Shown piece after piece: positions 1,399 to 14,629 of a stretch of 40,546 nucleotides of DNA (the stretch's first letter is position 1; every line of letters begins with the position of its first letter). The DNA is from a virus. The DNA is taken from IMG/VR virus record IMGVR_UViG_3300045970_000141, positions 1 to 40,546 of that record; one strand, 5' to 3'. The translations under genes and the position numbers were made by a program. Below the pieces are notes generated by a model. That model saw nothing but the letters and a program-made list of their open reading frames with translations, searched no databases and was not told the DNA's origin.

Positions 1399-1926
1399 CT
1401 ACACCCCTGCGACGTAGGGGTAGTTCAGGAACACGGTGCCTGCCGCCGAGGAGGCCGACTGAGCCCCCGCCACGTAGGCGCCGTAGATCTGGTTGGCGAC
1501 GGCTGCGGAGGCTGCCGGGGACCGCTCGATGCAGCCCGCCGTCGAGCCGATCTTGCAGAGGTCACCCAGAGTAGCGGCCGAGGACACGGTGACCGGGCTA
1601 GCGTGCCCGTACACCTGAACCCATCCCGCCACGTTGGAGGCCGACAGGGCGGCGTAGACGACGCCCACCCTAGCGGCCGAGCCGTTGCTGGCCGTGCCCA
1701 ACTGCGACACGGAGCCAGCGAGGCCCCGGAAGACGACGGCGTTGCCAGCGGCGACGTTCGCCCCGCCAGCGGCGTAGACGAAGACGCCCGCGCCGAGAGC
1801 GGAGTCGGTGGCGAGAGCCGTCTGCCCGAATCCGTACTTGGGGAAGACGCCAGCGGAGGTGGCGAAGGAGGCGGTGACGGTCACCTCGTCCTTGCCGATG
1901 GTGGGGTCGACGAACTTGTATGCCAT
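1399..1926 (-). CDS. Putative capsid decoration or cement protein (175 aa, Ala/Gly/Ser/Val-rich beta protein).
   Basis: It lies immediately downstream of the major capsid gene, with AAAGGA as SD. Composition and size fit podoviral decoration or cement proteins. The assignment is positional. Confidence 0.5.
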   Translation of the reverse strand: MAYKFVDPTIGKDEVTVTASFATSAGVFPKYGFGQTALATDSALGAGVFVYAAGGANVAAGNAVVFRGLAGSVSQLGTASNGSAARVGVVYAALSASNVAGWVQVYGHASPVTVSSAATLGDLCKIGSTAGCIERSPAASAAVANQIYGAYVAGAQSASSAAGTVFLNYPYVAGV

Positions 1927-6962: not shown

Positions 6963-8359
6963 GGGATCCTCTTGCGCTGCGACAGGGAGATGGCTCGATC
7001 GTCGTGAAGCTGGTCGAGCGTGAAGCTCATGTGGATAGGAACCGCATTGGGCTTGGGGGCTACCAGCGTAGGAGCACCTTTCCCTAGCATCTCCGATACC
7101 TTCACTACGGCAGCAGTATACCGGAAAGCGTCAGCGGCGTGGCTCGACCAATCATGGGCGGGTCGTGCCGAGTAGTCGCGGTCATCCTCGTCCCACTCGT
7201 AGTGATAGTTGCGGATGCACTTGATCCCGTCAGCGGTGCGCGGGTGGAAGCGCACGCCCTTCTGGATCATCCATCGAGCGGCCTGAATTCCCTCCAACAG
7301 TGGGAGATCGGGTCCAACCGATACCACTCCAGGGTACTTTCGCAGGAATTGATTGAGAATCGAAACCCCAGCCGCGAGAGTAGTTTGCCGGGCATCATGT
7401 GGAAGCCAGTGGCGTATGTATCGGTACGGTTTCCCGTCGATGACATCGAAATAATGACTAAGCGGTTTCCCGTGCTCTTCGTAAAAATCGATGAGGTCAA
7501 CGCGCCCTCCCTTCACTTGCCAGAACCAGATCACCGTGGAATCGGTGAAGCCAAGATCCCAGCTAGTGAAAACGTCGTCGTAGCCGTGCTCGAAATCGTC
7601 GAGGGCCCCGGTCTTCCCGGCCTCGTCGACGAGATCGCCCCAGACGGAGCCGACGAGGGCGGCTGTCCAGTCACAAAGGTACTCCTGCTTGATGAATGCT
7701 TCTGGCTTCCCGCTCTGACGCTCCTCGGCTAGCGTCTTCTCGGGGTCATACGCACGGGTATCGAAGAGGGTTTTGATGTCGCAATACCAGAGCTTCGGAT
7801 CCGCCTTGGCGCGGTCGAACAGGTCTTTTGCGTGGTTCGCCCCTCTAGGCGTCGTGATGTAGATTTCCCAACCGTCGTTCTCCCGGAGCATAGGGGAGAT
7901 GAGGTTCGTGCTCTTGGGCGAGCAGATGGCGTATTCGGAGTAGACGACACCTACGGGTCCGGCGCCCACGACCTCCACTCGATCTGACCCCAGGAGGCGC
8001 CAGATGCTTCCACACTTGAGTTCCACGACCATCTGCTGCTCGTCCTTGCGCTTGACGATGGACCCGGGTCGCTTCGGGTCCAGAAAACCCGGAAATACGT
8101 TCTCAAGGGTACGCTTTCCTTCCTTGGTGAAGCCCTCCCAGATGGCCTTCCGGGCTTGGGCGAATGTCGGGTAGATGTGCCAGTAGGCGCCCTTCCGCTC
8201 GTGCATCATCTTGCAGGTCTGGTGGAGGGCGGCGAGATCCTTGCCGGAGCGCCGATGCCACACCATCATGCACTTCTTCCCCCCGTTATCCATGAAGTCC
8301 ATGAACGGGATCTGGTAGTCCCGGGGGGTGAAATCGTTGGGTAGGGAGACGTTGATCAT
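6959..8359 (-). CDS. terL: Terminase large subunit (466 aa from the internal ATG).
   Basis: Walker A-like VWHRRSGKD near the N-terminus, size, and position before the portal. I prefer the ATG at 8359 (MINVSLPNDF...) because it forms an ATGA overlap with the upstream stop at 8356-8358. The track start at 8389 would add 10 aa. Confidence 0.88.
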   Translation of the reverse strand: MINVSLPNDFTPRDYQIPFMDFMDNGGKKCMMVWHRRSGKDLAALHQTCKMMHERKGAYWHIYPTFAQARKAIWEGFTKEGKRTLENVFPGFLDPKRPGSIVKRKDEQQMVVELKCGSIWRLLGSDRVEVVGAGPVGVVYSEYAICSPKSTNLISPMLRENDGWEIYITTPRGANHAKDLFDRAKADPKLWYCDIKTLFDTRAYDPEKTLAEERQSGKPEAFIKQEYLCDWTAALVGSVWGDLVDEAGKTGALDDFEHGYDDVFTSWDLGFTDSTVIWFWQVKGGRVDLIDFYEEHGKPLSHYFDVIDGKPYRYIRHWLPHDARQTTLAAGVSILNQFLRKYPGVVSVGPDLPLLEGIQAARWMIQKGVRFHPRTADGIKCIRNYHYEWDEDDRDYSARPAHDWSSHAADAFRYTAAVVKVSEMLGKGAPTLVAPKPNAVPIHMSFTLDQLHDDRAISLSQRKRIP

Positions 8360-9435
8360 ACCCACGCGCTCCCGTTCCAGTAGACCCAAGCCGTGCCGCT
8401 CCAGACCTTGAACGTCTGGTTGATGGCGCCGCCGCCCCCGCTGGTCGCCCGGGCGTAGGCGTCGGAGAGGGTCAGGGTGTCCAGCTGGGTCCGGCCGGAC
8501 GCGACGGAGGCCACCGCTACCGCATAGGCGTCCGACAGGGCGAGGGTGTCTAGCGAGTCTTTGGTTGCTCGGGCGGCGACCGAGTAGGCGTCCGACAGGG
8601 TGAGCGCATCGGACTGGGATCTGCCCCCTGCCGTTGCCGTGGCGGCGGCGTAGGCGTCGGACAGAGCGAGGGTGTCAGCCTGCGAACCCTGCGCGGCCGC
8701 GCTTGCGGCGTAGGCGTCCGACAGCGCCAGCGCCTCCATCTCGGACCTGCTGACCCCTGCCTGCGCGGCATAGAGGTCCGATAGGCTGAGAGTGTCGCTC
8801 TGGCTCCTAGATGCCGCTAGCGCGGCGGCATACAGGTCGGACAGGGTGATGGCGTTCGATTCCGAGCCGGTAGCCGCGAGCGCGGCCGCGTAGAGATCGG
8901 ACAGGGCCAGCGTTTCCGCTTGAGATCTCGCCGCCGCAACGCTGGCTAGGTAGGCGTCCGACAAGACGAGCGCGTCGGACTCGGCCCCTGCGTATCCCAG
9001 AGCTACTGCGTATAGGTCGGAAAGCGCCAGGCTTTCCGCCAGGCTCGCGCTAGCCCCGGATCCACTAAAGGCGCTAGCGTATGTGTCCGATAGAACTAGG
9101 GTGTCGCTAGAGCTGCCGCTATACGAGATGGCGGCAGAGTAGCCGTCTGCCAGGGTGATAAGCTCAGCGCCAGCCCCAACTAGGCGGACGCTAGCCGAGT
9201 AGCTATCGGAGATAACCAGCGTCTCGGCTTGGGAGCCCTGCGCGGCTGCCCCTGCTGCGTAGGTGTCGGTGAGGGTGATGGTCTGGGCTGCCAGAGCAAC
9301 CCCGACCACCATGATCACCGCATAGGCGTCCGAGAGGGCTAGCGTCTCGGTAACTGCCCCGCTATCCCCCCCACCGCCGCCACCACCGGGGACTCCGGTC
9401 TGGAAGGCGTTGGGCTGGAAAGCGTTCTGCTGCAA
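8356..9435 (-). CDS. Tandem-repeat protein (359 aa). Poly-Gly N-terminus, 15 copies of a ~20-aa unit (..TLxLSDxYAAxxA..), and an aromatic C-terminal tail.
   Basis: A single uninterrupted ORF. I counted 15 repeat units by hand. The apparent start is TTG at 9433-9435, 3 nt after the methyltransferase stop. Its stop overlaps the TerL ATG. Confidence 0.75.
   Translation of the reverse strand: MQQNAFQPNAFQTGVPGGGGGGGDSGAVTETLALSDAYAVIMVVGVALAAQTITLTDTYAAGAAAQGSQAETLVISDSYSASVRLVGAGAELITLADGYSAAISYSGSSSDTLVLSDTYASAFSGSGASASLAESLALSDLYAVALGYAGAESDALVLSDAYLASVAAARSQAETLALSDLYAAALAATGSESNAITLSDLYAAALAASRSQSDTLSLSDLYAAQAGVSRSEMEALALSDAYAASAAAQGSQADTLALSDAYAAATATAGGRSQSDALTLSDAYSVAARATKDSLDTLALSDAYAVAVASVASGRTQLDTLTLSDAYARATSGGGGAINQTFKVWSGTAWVYWNGSAWV
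8425..9351. repeat. About 60-bp periodic degenerate tandem DNA repeat (the coding repeat of the gene above).
   Basis: Recurrent cores such as gcgtaggcgtccgacag.gcgagggtgtc alternate with variable ~30-nt segments, all in one reading frame. Confidence 0.85.
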
Positions 9436-9438
9436 GAG

Positions 9439-10056
9439 CTATTTCTTGATCGCCGTCGCGATCATGTCCTGGGCGGCTTCCTTGTAGGACTGGAGAGCGA
9501 ACTGGACGAAGCCCTGATCGCGGCCGATGCACCAAGGGGCGAGCGAGTACCCGTAGGAGACATCGAAATCACAGCTATACGCGAGCGGGCCGGGAGCGAT
9601 CTCGGAGTCGGTGTGAGGGGCCTGTGCAGGAAGGTTCTTCTCCTTGCTGCCAGCCCTCCACTCCTTGTTCATGTAAAGCCACGCCATCTCGGAGAAGGGG
9701 GCCTGATGGGTGGGGTCGCCGTAGTACCTGTTGGAGTTCCAGTGGGGAAGGACGATCTGGGCCTTCGCCCCCTTCCGCATGACCCGGTGCAGTTCGTTGA
9801 AGAAGAAGACCCGCTCCTTCCAGGTCAGGTGCTCGATCATGTGGGAGCAGTTCACCTCGTCCACGGAGTCGTCGGCCCACGGCCACGTATGGTTGCCGAG
9901 GTCGTGGACGACATCCACGCCGGGGAGCTTCAGGGTATCTACCCCGATGAACCCCTCCTTCTTGTTCCCGCCGCACCCCAAATCCAGCTTCAAGGGGACG
10001 ATCATCGGAACGAGGTTCGCCGGGACATCCTCTGCCTTCACCTTGCGCTTTGCCAT
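9439..10056 (-). CDS. Class I SAM-dependent methyltransferase (205 aa from the internal ATG).
   Basis: Motif I LDLGCGGN, a downstream acidic loop (VDVVHDL), and a VDEVNCSHMIEHL motif typical of Methyltransf_11-like enzymes. The ATG at 10056 has GGGGG as SD and lies 10 nt after the upstream stop. Confidence 0.8.
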   Translation of the reverse strand: MAKRKVKAEDVPANLVPMIVPLKLDLGCGGNKKEGFIGVDTLKLPGVDVVHDLGNHTWPWADDSVDEVNCSHMIEHLTWKERVFFFNELHRVMRKGAKAQIVLPHWNSNRYYGDPTHQAPFSEMAWLYMNKEWRAGSKEKNLPAQAPHTDSEIAPGPLAYSCDFDVSYGYSLAPWCIGRDQGFVQFALQSYKEAAQDMIATAIKK

Positions 10057-10066
10057 GTGACCCCCG

Positions 10067-10798
10067 TCACCAGATACGGCCGTCATCTGCGATATGGCCG
10101 ACAGTTGTGCTGCAATCGACAGCGCAGCGGAAGCCGTTCGGCCGCGCCACCTGTCCCCAGAAGTAGAGATCCTGCGTGCCGACGCCCCTGTCGTCGGGAT
10201 CCTTGCCGAGCGTCTTAAACCAGGGCTTCTCGACCTTCTTCGCCTCCAGTTCCCGGAACATCGACATCCGGTAGAGGGCGAAGCCCATTCCGATACCGTA
10301 TGACTCGATGACCTGCCCGGGGACCGGGATCTGCGGCCGGTAGTTCTGCACTGGATCCCTGATGTCGCCCCAGATTTGGGGAACCCCGCCCTCGCCCTTC
10401 GTCCAGTAGAGCCCGCTGATTGCAGCGTACTCGGGATTTTTCTCCATGGCAGAGAGGAGCTTCAGCACCTCGTTGCCCTGAGAGCAGATGTTGTCGTGCT
10501 CGATGGTCAGGACGTATTCGAAATCCCGCAATCCGGGGTTGGCGAGCGTGATGTCGATGGCGGCTTGAAAGGCTGCGCCCACTTCCGCCCCCTTGATGAA
10601 CATCGGGACCATCGCCTGATTCGGCGGGAAGACCAGATTGCGGTGCGACAGGTACACCTCGGGCATGATCTTGTTGCCGCCCGGAATGATGTAGACGATC
10701 CGCTGCTTCTTCCACGAACCGATCTCCGTGAGCCGCCTGCTGGCGGCCTCCAGGTCTTTGTTGTGGATCCCTTCTCCAATCATCAGGATTTCTGCCAT
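10067..10798 (-). CDS. GT-A fold (family-2-like) glycosyltransferase (243 aa from the internal ATG).
   Basis: Rossmann-like N-terminal strand (RIVYIIPGGN), a DxD-equivalent TIEHDN, and a later GTQDLYFW acidic motif. The ATG at 10798 is preceded by GGGGGGA and lies 11 nt after the upstream stop. Confidence 0.7.
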   Translation of the reverse strand: MAEILMIGEGIHNKDLEAASRRLTEIGSWKKQRIVYIIPGGNKIMPEVYLSHRNLVFPPNQAMVPMFIKGAEVGAAFQAAIDITLANPGLRDFEYVLTIEHDNICSQGNEVLKLLSAMEKNPEYAAISGLYWTKGEGGVPQIWGDIRDPVQNYRPQIPVPGQVIESYGIGMGFALYRMSMFRELEAKKVEKPWFKTLGKDPDDRGVGTQDLYFWGQVARPNGFRCAVDCSTTVGHIADDGRIW

Positions 10799-10809
10799 TG
10801 TCCCCCCGG

Positions 10810-11835
10810 TTAGGTACTTCCAAGTATGCAATACCAGTTGTTGACGACGCTACCGCTGATCCTCGACCCGGCCATGTCGGCATTGGAGGTGATCGCTCCC
10901 GCAACGCCTCTCGATGCAGGCCCCCACGGGTTGAGCGACGAACCGGCCACGGTGGAGCCCGTTCCGAACCAAGCAAAGTTAGCAGCCGCAGCTGGCTGCT
11001 GATGGAGATTCGAGTAGAGCGCGGCGGTCGTCGCCGTTGCGGTCGTTCCTGCTCCCGAAGAAGCATGAGCCTGCGCGATCCAGTACTCTCCTGCCGTGAG
11101 CGTCGTCGCAGGGAACGGGATCTTGATCATCCTCGGTCCATTGAAGACGGCGGCGATGTTGGCCGTCGCGCCGGACGAGAAGTTTGCCGCGAGCGTTCCG
11201 CCAGTGGTATCCGTGGCGAAGGATACGGTCATGCCGATGGAAGTATTTGAGTGTGTGATGAGGACGGTTGCAACGAACGACCCGTGGGTCATGTACGACA
11301 GGCTATCGTAACTATTGCCGTAGTTCTTGCGGCTGAACAGGCTGAAGTAGTGCGTATAGCCGTGGCGAACGGTCTGAGTCGTGGCAGACGAAGTGCCTGT
11401 CGGGAACCCGATGCTAACGGACTTGGGTGCCCACACGTTGTTGAATGCGAGATCTTCCTGGATGCTGAAATACTGGAAGTAGGTCGATGCAGGGTGAGAC
11501 GACCATGCCGTGCCGGTGAGGTACGGGGTCGGCTCGAAGATCGACATCGCACGGCCAGTCTCGTTGATCCAGAGCGTCTGCCCGCCACCGGCAGCAGTGG
11601 ACAGGTTCAGCGTGATGTCATTGGTGCCACCGAAGACGAGGTTGGTCCCAGACCCGTTCGCGGTGCCAGCCGTGTTGCCGGTGATCGTTACGAAGTGGTT
11701 GTGCGCGGAGTTCCAGTCAGAGGGGCGTATGAGATCCGTCGCCGCGATGGTGTTCGTCCCACCCCCGCTGTTCGCGACTGTGACCGTCCCGGTGAAGTCC
11801 GCGACGGTATTCGACTTCACATGACTGACGGCCAC
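10810..11835 (-). CDS. Fibre-like or receptor-binding-like beta-rich protein (341 aa, Thr/Ser/Gly/Asn/Ala-rich).
   Basis: GTG start at 11835 with a strong AGGAGG SD 5 nt upstream. The N-terminal segment (..TDLIRPSDWNSAHN..) and composition resemble phage fibre proteins. The functional call is tentative. Confidence 0.45.
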   Translation of the reverse strand: MAVSHVKSNTVADFTGTVTVANSGGGTNTIAATDLIRPSDWNSAHNHFVTITGNTAGTANGSGTNLVFGGTNDITLNLSTAAGGGQTLWINETGRAMSIFEPTPYLTGTAWSSHPASTYFQYFSIQEDLAFNNVWAPKSVSIGFPTGTSSATTQTVRHGYTHYFSLFSRKNYGNSYDSLSYMTHGSFVATVLITHSNTSIGMTVSFATDTTGGTLAANFSSGATANIAAVFNGPRMIKIPFPATTLTAGEYWIAQAHASSGAGTTATATTAALYSNLHQQPAAAANFAWFGTGSTVAGSSLNPWGPASRGVAGAITSNADMAGSRISGSVVNNWYCILGST

Positions 11836-11850
11836 GGGGGCCTCCTGATC

Positions 11851-12447
11851 TTAGGCCATCGACAGAGAGGCGGTCACCGACAGGGTGGACGGGTTGGCGG
11901 CCTGGAGGGAGGCGAACGTCCCGTAGGCGTAGAGGCGAACGTCGGCGGAAGCCGCGCCCGTCCCGCAGGCGGCCGAGGTGTAGAAGAGCACACCCGCGCC
12001 GCTGATCGTCTGGACGGCGGTGATCCCGTAGGAGGCCGTTGCCGAGAAGAGCTGGGTGCCGGTATCGCCCGCCGCCGTGGCGGCGGTGGCGAAGGTGATG
12101 GCCGGGATCGACGCCCCGTAGCCCGTCACCTGGGAGCCGTTGATGTTCGACCAGACGGCGCTGGCGTTGGTGGTGGCCGAGGCCGAGTGGAGGAAGAGGA
12201 AGGCGTTGGAGTTCGAGGCCCAGCTTGCGAAGAGCCGGTTGCCGACCAGCGCCCGCCCCTGGTGGACGACGAGGTTGTGCGGCATATGGCCCGAGGCGAT
12301 CATCTCGGGCTTGCCGTCCGGGCCGGGGGCCCAGAGTTGCGCGTCCATCTTGAAGTAGGGCATCTCCAGCGCGTCGCCGGAATTGCTTCCGCCGTGGACG
12401 ATCTGGGCCTCGTACTTGTCGGTCAGGTTCAGCTTCTCGCTAGCCAT
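11851..12447 (-). CDS. Hypothetical beta-rich virion-associated protein (198 aa from the internal ATG).
   Basis: The ATG at 12447 (MASEKLNL...) has a GGAGAG SD and follows the upstream stop at 12464. The N-terminal 38 aa of the track ORF overlap the upstream gene and are rejected. Confidence 0.6.
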   Translation of the reverse strand: MASEKLNLTDKYEAQIVHGGSNSGDALEMPYFKMDAQLWAPGPDGKPEMIASGHMPHNLVVHQGRALVGNRLFASWASNSNAFLFLHSASATTNASAVWSNINGSQVTGYGASIPAITFATAATAAGDTGTQLFSATASYGITAVQTISGAGVLFYTSAACGTGAASADVRLYAYGTFASLQAANPSTLSVTASLSMA

Positions 12448-12463
12448 GGGGCTCTCCGTCTTT

Positions 12464-12895
12464 CTAGGGGATATTGATCCAACCCCAAGTACCCGCGTTT
12501 CCGGCGAGCCATTGGGCATAGGTGATACCGCTTGCTGGGGGAGTGGACTGAACAGCGACACCGAGCCGAGCCCACATGGCGGGCCGACTGAGCAGGGAGG
12601 CCAGCGAGGTGTTCAGGGCCGCTATCTCCTGGTCCGTGACGGCATCTTGAGCCTGTAGGGCCAGAACATCAGCAGTGAGGATGGCGTCTTCGGCGGCGGT
12701 TCCGAAGAAGGAGGGGGGATGACCCCCGAGGGTAGCTGCATCCCCCCCTCCCGGGTTGACGCCTGTGGCCGTGAGTTTCGCGATGGGGCCGGTGACGGCA
12801 GCGGTGATGCCGGATACGAGATCCAGCGTCTCAACGTAACCGACAGTGGCCCCGTTCTGGGTGATCTTGAGGCGTATCGGAACCTGGATGCTCAC
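12464..12895 (-). CDS. Small fibre-like protein (143 aa).
   Basis: GTG start in a GTGA overlap with the upstream stop. It contains DAATLGGHPPSFF, a motif type (D.TL.G.H.S.F) common at the start of phage tail-fibre shafts, followed by a coiled-coil-like segment. Confidence 0.55.
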   Translation of the reverse strand: MSIQVPIRLKITQNGATVGYVETLDLVSGITAAVTGPIAKLTATGVNPGGGDAATLGGHPPSFFGTAAEDAILTADVLALQAQDAVTDQEIAALNTSLASLLSRPAMWARLGVAVQSTPPASGITYAQWLAGNAGTWGWINIP

Positions 12896-14194: not shown

Positions 14195-14317
14195 CCGCTT
14201 GTTGCCCGATAGACCCTGATTTCCTTCGGGTTTGTTGGGTCGTTCCTTGGCTCGTGGCCTGCATATCCTATGGACGGGCAATCAAGCCCCGGCCGAAAGG
14301 CTCGAAAGGGAACGACG

Positions 14318-14629
14318 ATGGAAGCGAGAAAGAGCGTAATCAAGATGGCGCCGCACGCGAGGGGGAAGCGCGTATGGCTACAGGGGGCGTGGCTCGTCAA
14401 GTATGGCTTCGGCCGGGGCACGCCGATCAAGGTGACGATCGACGCTTCGGGCATGGTGATCGAGGCGGATGCGGCAGGGGATAGGCGCGTAGCTGGGAAG
14501 GACGTTCAACCGATCATCGACGTTATCGGCTCGGCAGTGTCGGCCGCATTCCCCGAAGCGTTCGCGCTGGTAGTAGTTACGCCGGGCATGATCACGGTCG
14601 CCCCCTCGACTGAGAAGGGGGCGATCTAG
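14318..14629 (+). CDS. AbrB/SpoVT/SymE-like swapped-hairpin domain protein (103 aa). Putative early regulator.
   Basis: The segment RVWLQGAWLVKYGFGRGTPIKVTIDASGMVIEA matches the l.G.WL...GF..G..v.V......vi pattern of SymE/AbrB-type domains. I prefer the ATG at 14318 because of the AAGGGA SD. The track start at 14270 remains possible. Confidence 0.6.
   Translation: MEARKSVIKMAPHARGKRVWLQGAWLVKYGFGRGTPIKVTIDASGMVIEADAAGDRRVAGKDVQPIIDVIGSAVSAAFPEAFALVVVTPGMITVAPSTEKGAI

Follow-up and report, generated by a model that had tools for sequence, protein, structure and literature searches.

What would a tailed phage do with a glycosyltransferase and a methyltransferase encoded among its fibre genes? 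The 40,546-nucleotide stretch of viral DNA that we analysed (IMG/VR record IMGVR_UViG_3300045970_000141; hereafter the window) carries in immediate succession the genes for a fibre-like protein with a C-terminal knob, a glycosyltransferase (GT) and a methyltransferase (MT). Our preferred reading, in which we place evenly balanced confidence, is a cytoplasmic system devoted to the knob-bearing fibre, which would glycosylate this protein and methylate the attached glycan. In a wider form, offered more tentatively and with confidence somewhat short of even, knob, GT and MT would make up an undescribed, self-contained protein glycosylation-methylation system, comprising a new GT family, a cognate MT family and an acceptor domain, which caps the fibre tips of varied types of tailed phage and anchored surface proteins in Patescibacteria (candidate phyla radiation, CPR). 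The argument turns on the following features:

10810..11835, minus strand: open reading frame (ORF) of the 341-aa fibre-like protein, the third partner and proposed acceptor
10837..11577, minus strand: knob domain of the 341-aa protein, about residues 87-333, from a hidden Markov model (HMM) match
10067..10798, minus strand: GT of 243 aa, assigned from its AlphaFold2 (AF2) fold, Foldseek and conserved motifs
9439..10056, minus strand: MT of 205 aa, class I S-adenosylmethionine (SAM) type, Methyltransf_11, assigned from Pfam and PHROG profiles

The evidence that carries this reading is the constancy of the three-gene arrangement. Our viral set comprises 81 IMG/VR loci and our genome set the 80 loci kept of 90 relatives, one genome per species having been scanned. 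A same-strand MT homologue comes after the GT in 80 of the 81 viral loci and in most of the 80 genome loci, and many ORFs just upstream of the GT have in common a 'MAVSH..RPSDWNSAHN' domain at the N-terminus and a 'GNT..GGNNITLS' unit. The knob HMM was run on all 161 loci, about 153 of which are testable (7 lack upstream sequence and 1 is masked). It finds exactly one ORF in 143 of the 161, always on the strand of the GT, always upstream of it, and less than 100 nt away in 88; four further knob loci appear with the HMMER filters off, bringing the count to 147 of about 153 testable. In L003 the knob gene lies just downstream (L162). The match falls at or near the C-terminus of the ORF wherever its position is listed, in ORFs of 77 to 1453 aa, of which some are truncated at the end of a contig. 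The parts that precede the knob are swapped freely, as beta-helix-like GNT..GGNNITLS repeats or transmembrane-anchored cellular forms, and the knob alone stays with the enzymes. An HMM search of the window finds exactly one knob, one GT and one MT.

The association also holds when approached from the side of the fibre. As the knob offers no stretch conserved enough for a pattern scan, in either a broad or a narrow alignment, this reverse test rests on the fibre N-terminal domain, a seed that is independent of the GT and may be biased toward one fibre class. The GT follows 45 of the 46 knob genes that have at least 2.2 kb of downstream sequence; the genome of the 46th (L162) appears circular, with GT and MT just upstream of the knob gene (L003). 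In L217, the sole locus where the N-terminal domain occurs and the knob does not, GT and MT are missing too. The position of the cassette varies: it stands before the gene for the large terminase subunit (TerL) here, in L002 and in L025, after the portal gene in L020 and between head genes in L035. Across the viral and genome loci the module has no conserved companion among membrane components such as a flippase or a polyprenyl-phosphate transferase, which, together with the solubility of both enzymes, fits a direct modification of protein in the cytoplasm.

An earlier reading of the window, made from its letters alone (the sequence-only reading), had proposed a methylated-glycan modification of virion proteins and had named three candidate substrates. 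The enzymes and their placement stand, and the conserved gene order renders a virion-protein target much more plausible. The candidates fared unequally: the protein encoded at 10810..11835 is the conserved partner, whereas the repeat protein at 8356..9435, with a homologue in 1 of the 81 related viral loci (L002), and the 175-aa protein at 1399..1926, which recurs in 4 of the 81, all close relatives of the window phage, were rejected as partners. From the poor recurrence of these two candidates it follows that the link is a specific C-terminal domain, not general Ser/Thr richness.

A tblastn search of 50,697 GenBank phage records returned no match to the GT or the fibre, except for three uncultured 'Caudoviricetes sp.' records matching the GT, and no relation at the level of BLAST was found to cultured phages, actinobacteriophages included. 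Our literature searches found nothing on this module. A related uncultured podovirus, MW202524 (L001, MW202524.1, 482-9313), encodes three further GTs, a knob fibre and an extra MT-domain protein, followed by the GT and the MT. Its extra GTs were considered as parts of the module and rejected, being essentially unique to that phage.

The knob is, judging from its predicted structure, the terminal domain of phage fibres, an all-beta (beta-sandwich) C-terminal unit of ~205 aa. In the 341-aa protein it is preceded by an N-terminal 'MAVSH..SN..AD..RPSDWNSAHN' domain and one 'GNTxG..GTN..GG(T)N(D)ITL' unit. The protein has 162 homologues, none of them named, and no match in Pfam, PHROG or NCBIfam; a locally iterated knob HMM matches its residues 87-333 (E 2e-25), the sole match in the window. 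The AF2 model is all-beta, with a predicted local distance difference test score (pLDDT) of 72.9. In BFVD, Foldseek matches it best (E 8e-19) to a protein of 834 aa from an uncultured phage, labelled 'parallel beta-helix repeat', and next to collagen-repeat and minor-tail proteins; its weak matches in the PDB are a capsid-associated chain of cyanophage A4, the central fibre of mycobacteriophage Douge and lectins of low probability. For the knob, the Foldseek matches to lectins and carbohydrate-binding modules (CBMs) have low probability and TM-scores of about 0.1. Conserved positions are few (Y251, G310, Y167, G249), and the mean p-distance is 0.75 for the knob, compared to 0.47 for the MT and 0.31 for the GT.

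The GT is, on the evidence of its model, a soluble GT-A-fold enzyme of the GT2-like clan, a clan-level member in a branch without a curated family model. It has no match in Pfam, PHROGs or NCBIfam, nor in a single-sequence PDB search; with no curated model matching, the fold assignment had to rest on a profile, a structural model and distant relatives. The annotation that we found for it is 'has synthase' alone, on three uncultured-phage GenBank records, in a family of 3237 clusters at 90% identity and 1624 representatives at 50% identity (E<=1e-3) that includes 510 IMG/VR stretches (at most that many contigs). A profile of 45 sequences gives one weak match in the PDB, to SpsA (E 0.014), at the DxD strand, where it aligns 'TIEHDNI' with the 'ATDDNI' of SpsA (D98-D99). 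The AF2 model (pLDDT 87.7, predicted TM-score 0.82) is a single Rossmann-like domain of alternating beta and alpha elements. With this model, Foldseek returns 190 PDB matches at E<=1e-3, headed by STIV A197 (1e-10), the GT domain of lysyl hydroxylase LH3, mimivirus R699, SpsA and COLGALT1; the probability is 1.00 for A197, LH3, SpsA, COLGALT1, hyaluronan synthase and others.

The catalytic-type residues of the GT are conserved deep in the family. Its DxD-type motif, E100-H101-D102, which follows the strand 95-99, reads EHD and not the canonical DxD; D102 is invariant and E100 nearly so, and T208-Q209-D210 forms a putative catalytic-base motif. Even in relatives 25-38% identical to the window GT, which read 'EDD' for 'EHD', D102 and D210 are invariant, which argues that these proteins are probably active enzymes. 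Among 37 distant relatives, 6 reach Pfam Glycos_transf_2 (PF00535; best E 6e-9) and 1 has a marginal match to Pfam TAGT (E 0.009). The GT-A fold that the sequence-only reading had named is thus borne out by the AF2 model, Foldseek, the DxD-type aspartate and the Glycos_transf_2 matches of distant relatives. The profile searches it had suggested succeeded in part: the MT matched Methyltransf_11, whereas the GT matched no Pfam or NCBIfam model, which served as a proxy for a CAZy family.

Two members of the GT family are unusual in their architecture. P0393 (562 aa) carries an intein-like insertion at the conserved 'QIWGD', which corresponds to about residues 140-144 of the window GT (PQIWGD); the insertion comes after '...GKPM', starts with 'CFDKE...' and ends with '...WSGN', followed by 'CYGDP'. 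The insertion carries a LAGLIDADG domain (Pfam E 2e-12 for one member). Inteins usually occupy conserved sites of important genes. The distant relative P0509 (540 aa) apparently contains two tandem GT-A domains of this family, with two matched stretches and two 'FIDDD' motifs.

The MT matches Pfam Methyltransf_11 (PF08241) with 26.6 bits against a cutoff of 21.2, and PHROG 6636 'methyltransferase' with E 2e-14. Across 38 aligned homologues, both motif I ('LDLGCG'; D25, G27 and G29 invariant) and a family-specific block, 'PHWxSxRYYGDPTH', are conserved. The best PDB match of the MT profile is the uncharacterised methyltransferase 3dli (E 4e-4), with a Y-x-DPTH-K motif in common. The earlier assignment to the class I SAM methyltransferases therefore agrees with a Pfam match above cutoff and a conserved motif I. 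It had likewise been remarked that DPPY/NPPY-type and PC/ENV motifs of DNA methylases are missing, and our regular-expression search of the MT for [DNS]PP[YFW], PC and ENV found none.

Several observations couple this MT to a glycosyltransferase: the distances within the GT and MT families are correlated (rho 0.65), the MW202524 cluster expands both activities, and a fused form exists. The latter is g90 of Synechococcus phage S-CRM01 (L236:4239-5492), a 417-aa protein with an N-terminal GT2-like domain and a C-terminal MT of the window MT family (HMM E 4e-20, QDPTH motif present), a fusion that ties the MT functionally to a glycosyltransferase. The g90 gene lies in a non-structural region of this T4-like cyanophage. 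A further relative, PANG_00019 of Paenibacillus phage PG1 (L237:4959-5579), is a 206-aa hypothetical protein encoded directly after a tail fibre gene and before the holin gene. It matches only the N-terminal SAM-binding half of the MT family (E 2e-29), the DPTH region being absent, and neither a GT nor a knob is found near it in the PG1 locus.

The module is shared with cellular genomes. At least 61 of the 80 genome loci are labelled as metagenome-assembled genomes of the Patescibacteria group (Saccharibacteria, Paceibacterota and similar), on contigs that reach 1.26 Mb, with GTs 35-40% identical to the window GT. The order of GT then MT and the upstream knob are kept in the genome loci. The knob proteins of Patescibacteria are of two main kinds, either about 500 aa long with an N-terminal hydrophobic anchor or built with GNT..GGNNITLSQ repeats. 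Their gene neighbours are cellular, namely pyruvate kinase, FtsX and Ig/fn3/dockerin surface proteins, and a prophage origin, which we considered, is not supported in view of these pyruvate kinase, FtsX and surface-protein genes. Except for L085, the genome loci hold no homologue of the TerL, portal or capsid protein of the window phage. In L133 a gene of the class A beta-lactamase family (PF13354, E 2e-39) stands between GT and MT at 10709-11719; such a gene may explain the gap of ~1 kb between GT and MT in many Patescibacteria loci of the Paceibacterota type.

The gene structure in the window is compact. The two enzyme ORFs, both on the minus strand, fill exactly the interval 9439..10798 that had been singled out from the sequence. 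The 341-aa gene ends in a TAA stop at 10812..10810, followed by GGGGGGA and the ATG of the GT at 10798; the TGA stop of the GT at 10069..10067 is followed by GGGGG and the ATG of the MT at 10056, leaving 10 nt between the two enzyme genes. Read directly from the sequence, both have a ribosome-binding site and an ATG start. The MT product of 205 aa is the same as the public gene call P0121, its TAG stop lies at 9441..9439, and the next ORF begins 3 nt later. The GC content at third codon positions is 0.81 to 0.85 in both ORFs. Neither enzyme has a transmembrane segment, the maximum Kyte-Doolittle value over 19 residues being 1.18 for the GT and about 1.2 for the pair.

How could such a system work? 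The three genes would be expressed late, from one operon. The GT would take a sugar from a nucleotide-sugar donor and attach it to the freshly synthesised knob-bearing fibre, using a metal-binding DxD-type site (D102) and probably D210 as the catalytic base, and the MT would then methylate the transferred sugar with SAM, so that virions would emerge with fibre tips capped by a methylated glycan. Cell-surface proteins of Patescibacteria that bear the knob and are anchored N-terminally would be modified by the same pair before export. With a minimal and soluble three-gene unit, direct modification of the knob protein in the cytoplasm is the simplest reading. Our analysis establishes the folds, the conserved catalytic-type residues, the solubility of the enzymes and the linkage of the genes; that the knob protein is the acceptor and that the methyl group is placed on the sugar we infer, and a donor sugar, a linkage and a site of methylation are presumed. 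The benefit might lie in stability, in shielding from proteases or antibodies, or in a tuning of adsorption.

A number of observations weigh against this scenario. Gene order alone cannot identify the acceptor, and in five testable loci (L020, L025, L035, L117 and L140) no knob was found near GT and MT, the search with filters off included; three of these, L020, L025 and L035, come from relatives of the window phage in which the cassette lies among head genes. The knob has diverged strongly and the GT little, and the correlation between GT and knob distances is near absent (rho 0.07 to 0.16, as opposed to 0.65 for GT and MT), so that this comparison, in which the knob distances are saturated, gives no signal of co-evolution. 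The knob has few conserved candidate acceptor residues, and the consensus S184 is a His in the window protein. A knob model of moderate confidence with weak lectin-like matches would also fit a role in binding a glycan in place of bearing one. Lastly, the MT-like gene that follows the tail fibre gene of PG1 in the absence of a GT indicates that the MT could act on protein directly.

These points lead to alternatives. If the knob were a lectin-like binder, GT and MT might alter a precursor of the envelope glycan such that the knob spares the producer cell, which in a phage would stop progeny from being trapped on debris or block superinfection, and in an epibiont would prevent self-agglutination. 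The all-beta knob with its weak lectin- and CBM-like matches, its fast evolution, as seen in receptor-binding tips, the strict pairing with the enzymes, which resembles an arrangement of binder plus immunity, and the location of the Patescibacteria module among cell-surface genes would all suit such receptor masking. Matched specificity, however, predicts the opposite of conserved enzymes and a hypervariable knob, both enzymes are soluble with no membrane transferase or flippase conserved alongside them, and the structural matches are of low probability; we thus hold this explanation to be unlikely, if conceivable. Envelope modification of the gtr type in particular is poorly supported. The gtrABC-type seroconversion systems consist of a membrane-associated bactoprenol GT (GtrB), a flippase (GtrA) and a polytopic GtrC; the GT and MT have no hydrophobic segment, and there is no conserved membrane-protein neighbour in the viral or genome loci. 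It is also rather improbable that two independent modifications are at work, with the GT glycosylating the fibre and the MT methylating amino-acid side chains of the fibre instead of the sugar. PG1 offers a hint of this, and methylation of a mycobacteriophage tail protein by a host enzyme is, in the account given in PMC13445384, reported as functionally important; but the PG1 protein shares merely the SAM-binding half, without the DPTH region, and both the fusion in S-CRM01 and the correlation of GT and MT distances point to a coupled pathway.

The two remaining alternatives dispense with a virion protein as the target. GT and MT might be a mobile accessory cassette acting on a host metabolite, a host protein or RNA, and tending to insert beside fibre genes, which are prone to recombination. 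The variable insertion sites in related genomes and the five loci without a nearby knob would be in line with this, but a bias in insertion leaves unexplained why the neighbour carries the same domain and is invariably an upstream gene on the same strand, in phages of 40 to 160 kb as on Patescibacteria chromosomes, and why, in the loci seeded by the N-terminal domain, knob genes are essentially never found without the cassette; we see a slim chance for it. DNA hypermodification, in which a modified base is glycosylated and then methylated before packaging, appears highly improbable. While GT-A-fold DNA glycosyltransferases do exist in phages (10.1101/2023.12.21.572611), the cassette adjoins the terminase gene region, and one of the distant GT relatives has the marginal TAGT match, the window ORFs scanned include no thymidylate-synthase-like, 5mYOX/TET, C5-methylase or hydroxymethylase gene and none is conserved with the cassette. 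In addition, DNA-methylase motifs are missing from the MT, the top 50 PDB matches of the GT do not include TarP, and Patescibacteria chromosomes carry the module among cell-surface genes. These results agree with the earlier view that a sugar or a protein is a likelier substrate than DNA; the GT, moreover, is unlike the phage DNA GT-A enzymes described so far. Modification of the knob-bearing protein itself, with the methyl group on its glycan, remains our preferred reading.

Glycosylation of a virus's own structural protein by virus-encoded enzymes is a known kind of system, and it is the present version of it that appears undescribed. The closest working precedent is found in the chlorovirus PBCV-1, where A064R and A061L, comprising GT-A domains and class I SAM MTs of ~200 aa, build the capsid glycan and methylate its terminal sugar (PMC9614988). 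In common are soluble, cytoplasmic, virus-encoded GT-A and class I MT enzymes directed at the virus's own structural protein, the acceptor in our case being a proposal. PBCV-1, however, is a giant virus of eukaryotes, with three domains fused in one protein and further GTs, and its acceptor is the major capsid protein, whereas the window has separate genes and a fibre-tip domain as the proposed acceptor. No sequence relation to A064R was detected, and it is not among the top 50 Foldseek PDB matches of the GT. In mycobacteriophages of the Che8 type, as far as the summary in PMC12619734 describes them, capsid and tail-tube subunits carry glycans at their C-termini through phage-encoded glycosyltransferases. 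This would parallel our module in the origin of the enzymes, the class of target and the C-terminal position; according to the same summary, the targets are capsid and tail-tube subunits of actinobacteriophages and not a fibre.

The best structural matches of the GT, namely A197, SpsA, LH3, COLGALT1 and R699 (E 1e-10 to 1e-6, probability 1.0), have the GT-A core and an acidic motif after the central strand in common with it, and two of them, LH3 and COLGALT1, are protein-glycosylating enzymes. Identity to these is 8-18% with TM-scores of 0.46-0.59, the window GT has EHD in place of DxD or DD, and none of the five has a methyltransferase and a dedicated acceptor-domain gene as partners. In the bacterial systems HMW1/HMW1C, TibA/TibC and AIDA-I/Aah, a soluble GT is encoded beside a beta-helical surface adhesin, which it modifies in the cytoplasm before export. 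The logic of an adjacent GT is the same here, and many knob proteins carry beta-helix-like repeats; these bacterial enzymes, however, belong to GT41 (GT-B fold) or heptosyltransferase families, are not known to have a methyltransferase partner and modify repeats instead of a terminal domain. Phage clusters for sugar hypermodification of DNA, which combine a GT-A or GT-B enzyme with C5-MT and 5mYOX or with ThyS, resemble the cassette where a GT-A enzyme is encoded beside a methyltransferase. In these the MT is a C5-cytosine DNA methylase and a dioxygenase or ThyS is adjacent, none of which was found in the window ORFs scanned, and the described GT-A enzymes of this kind have an R..DDD..EDY/F motif and match TarP and JGT (10.1101/2023.12.21.572611).

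Phage-encoded glycosylation of virion proteins has, to our knowledge, been demonstrated in only a handful of phages, and in those cases it alters recognition by the immune system and, possibly, stability. The elements that appear to be undescribed here are a GT family outside curation, a cognate MT, a dedicated fibre-tip domain and the sharing of all this with Patescibacteria. While abundant in metagenomes, the module is absent from cultured GenBank phages, and neither GT nor knob has a curated family. As the gene order names a probable substrate, the three-protein system should be tractable in E. coli. If our reading is true, it provides a new GT family for which the acceptor domain on the protein is known, a portable pair of tag and enzymes for site-directed glyco-methylation, and a route into the almost unknown cell-surface biochemistry of Patescibacteria, a group whose way of life centres on attaching to host cells. 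These ultrasmall epibiotic bacteria and the phages would then share, on surface proteins and fibres respectively, a modified adhesive or protective tip that is exchanged horizontally as one unit. If receptor masking is true instead, the module represents a new kind of pairing between a binder and an immunity function.

The window as a whole has the appearance of a podovirus-like genome of roughly 40 kb with a GC content of about 0.62. A single long late operon on the minus strand holds both enzyme genes, which sit upstream of the large terminase gene. The larger-scale features are:

minus strand, late operon in transcription order: small proteins of 133 and 79 aa, fibre-like proteins of 143, 236 and 341 aa, GT, MT, 359-aa repeat protein, TerL, portal, major capsid protein
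29-40.5 kb of the window: tail genes

This order from the fibre-like genes to the major capsid protein confirms that the cassette lies inside the structural operon, as had been noted from the sequence. The neighbouring proteins are indeed rich in Ser, Thr, Ala and Gly, another feature noted then, with a combined fraction of 0.44 to 0.55, compared to 0.24 to 0.25 in the enzymes. In a promoter and terminator scan of the window the counts stayed at shuffle level, and the operon structure is known from gene spacing alone. The 359-aa protein (8356..9435, minus strand; fraction 0.55) consists of peptide repeats of about 18 residues, 'ETLxLSDxYAxA..'. It has no family match, and TRF finds no tandem repeat at the DNA level; its gene lies directly upstream of the terminase gene and overlaps it, an unusual position. 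Upstream of the terminase gene, again unusually, stand the 143-, 236- and 341-aa proteins as a fibre-like cluster of three genes. The 143-aa protein (12464..12895, minus strand) bears the fibre-type motif 'DAATLGGHPPSFF', and its ORF overlaps the long reading of the 236-aa ORF (11851..12561, minus strand) by about 100 nt; given this overlap, translation of the 236-aa gene probably begins at the internal 'MASEKLNL...'. On the plus strand, the early region opens with a 119-aa ORF (14270..14629) that has a sub-threshold match to SymE_toxin (E 2e-5, 24.8 bits against a cutoff of 29) and lies beside AAA_5 and DUF7192 genes.

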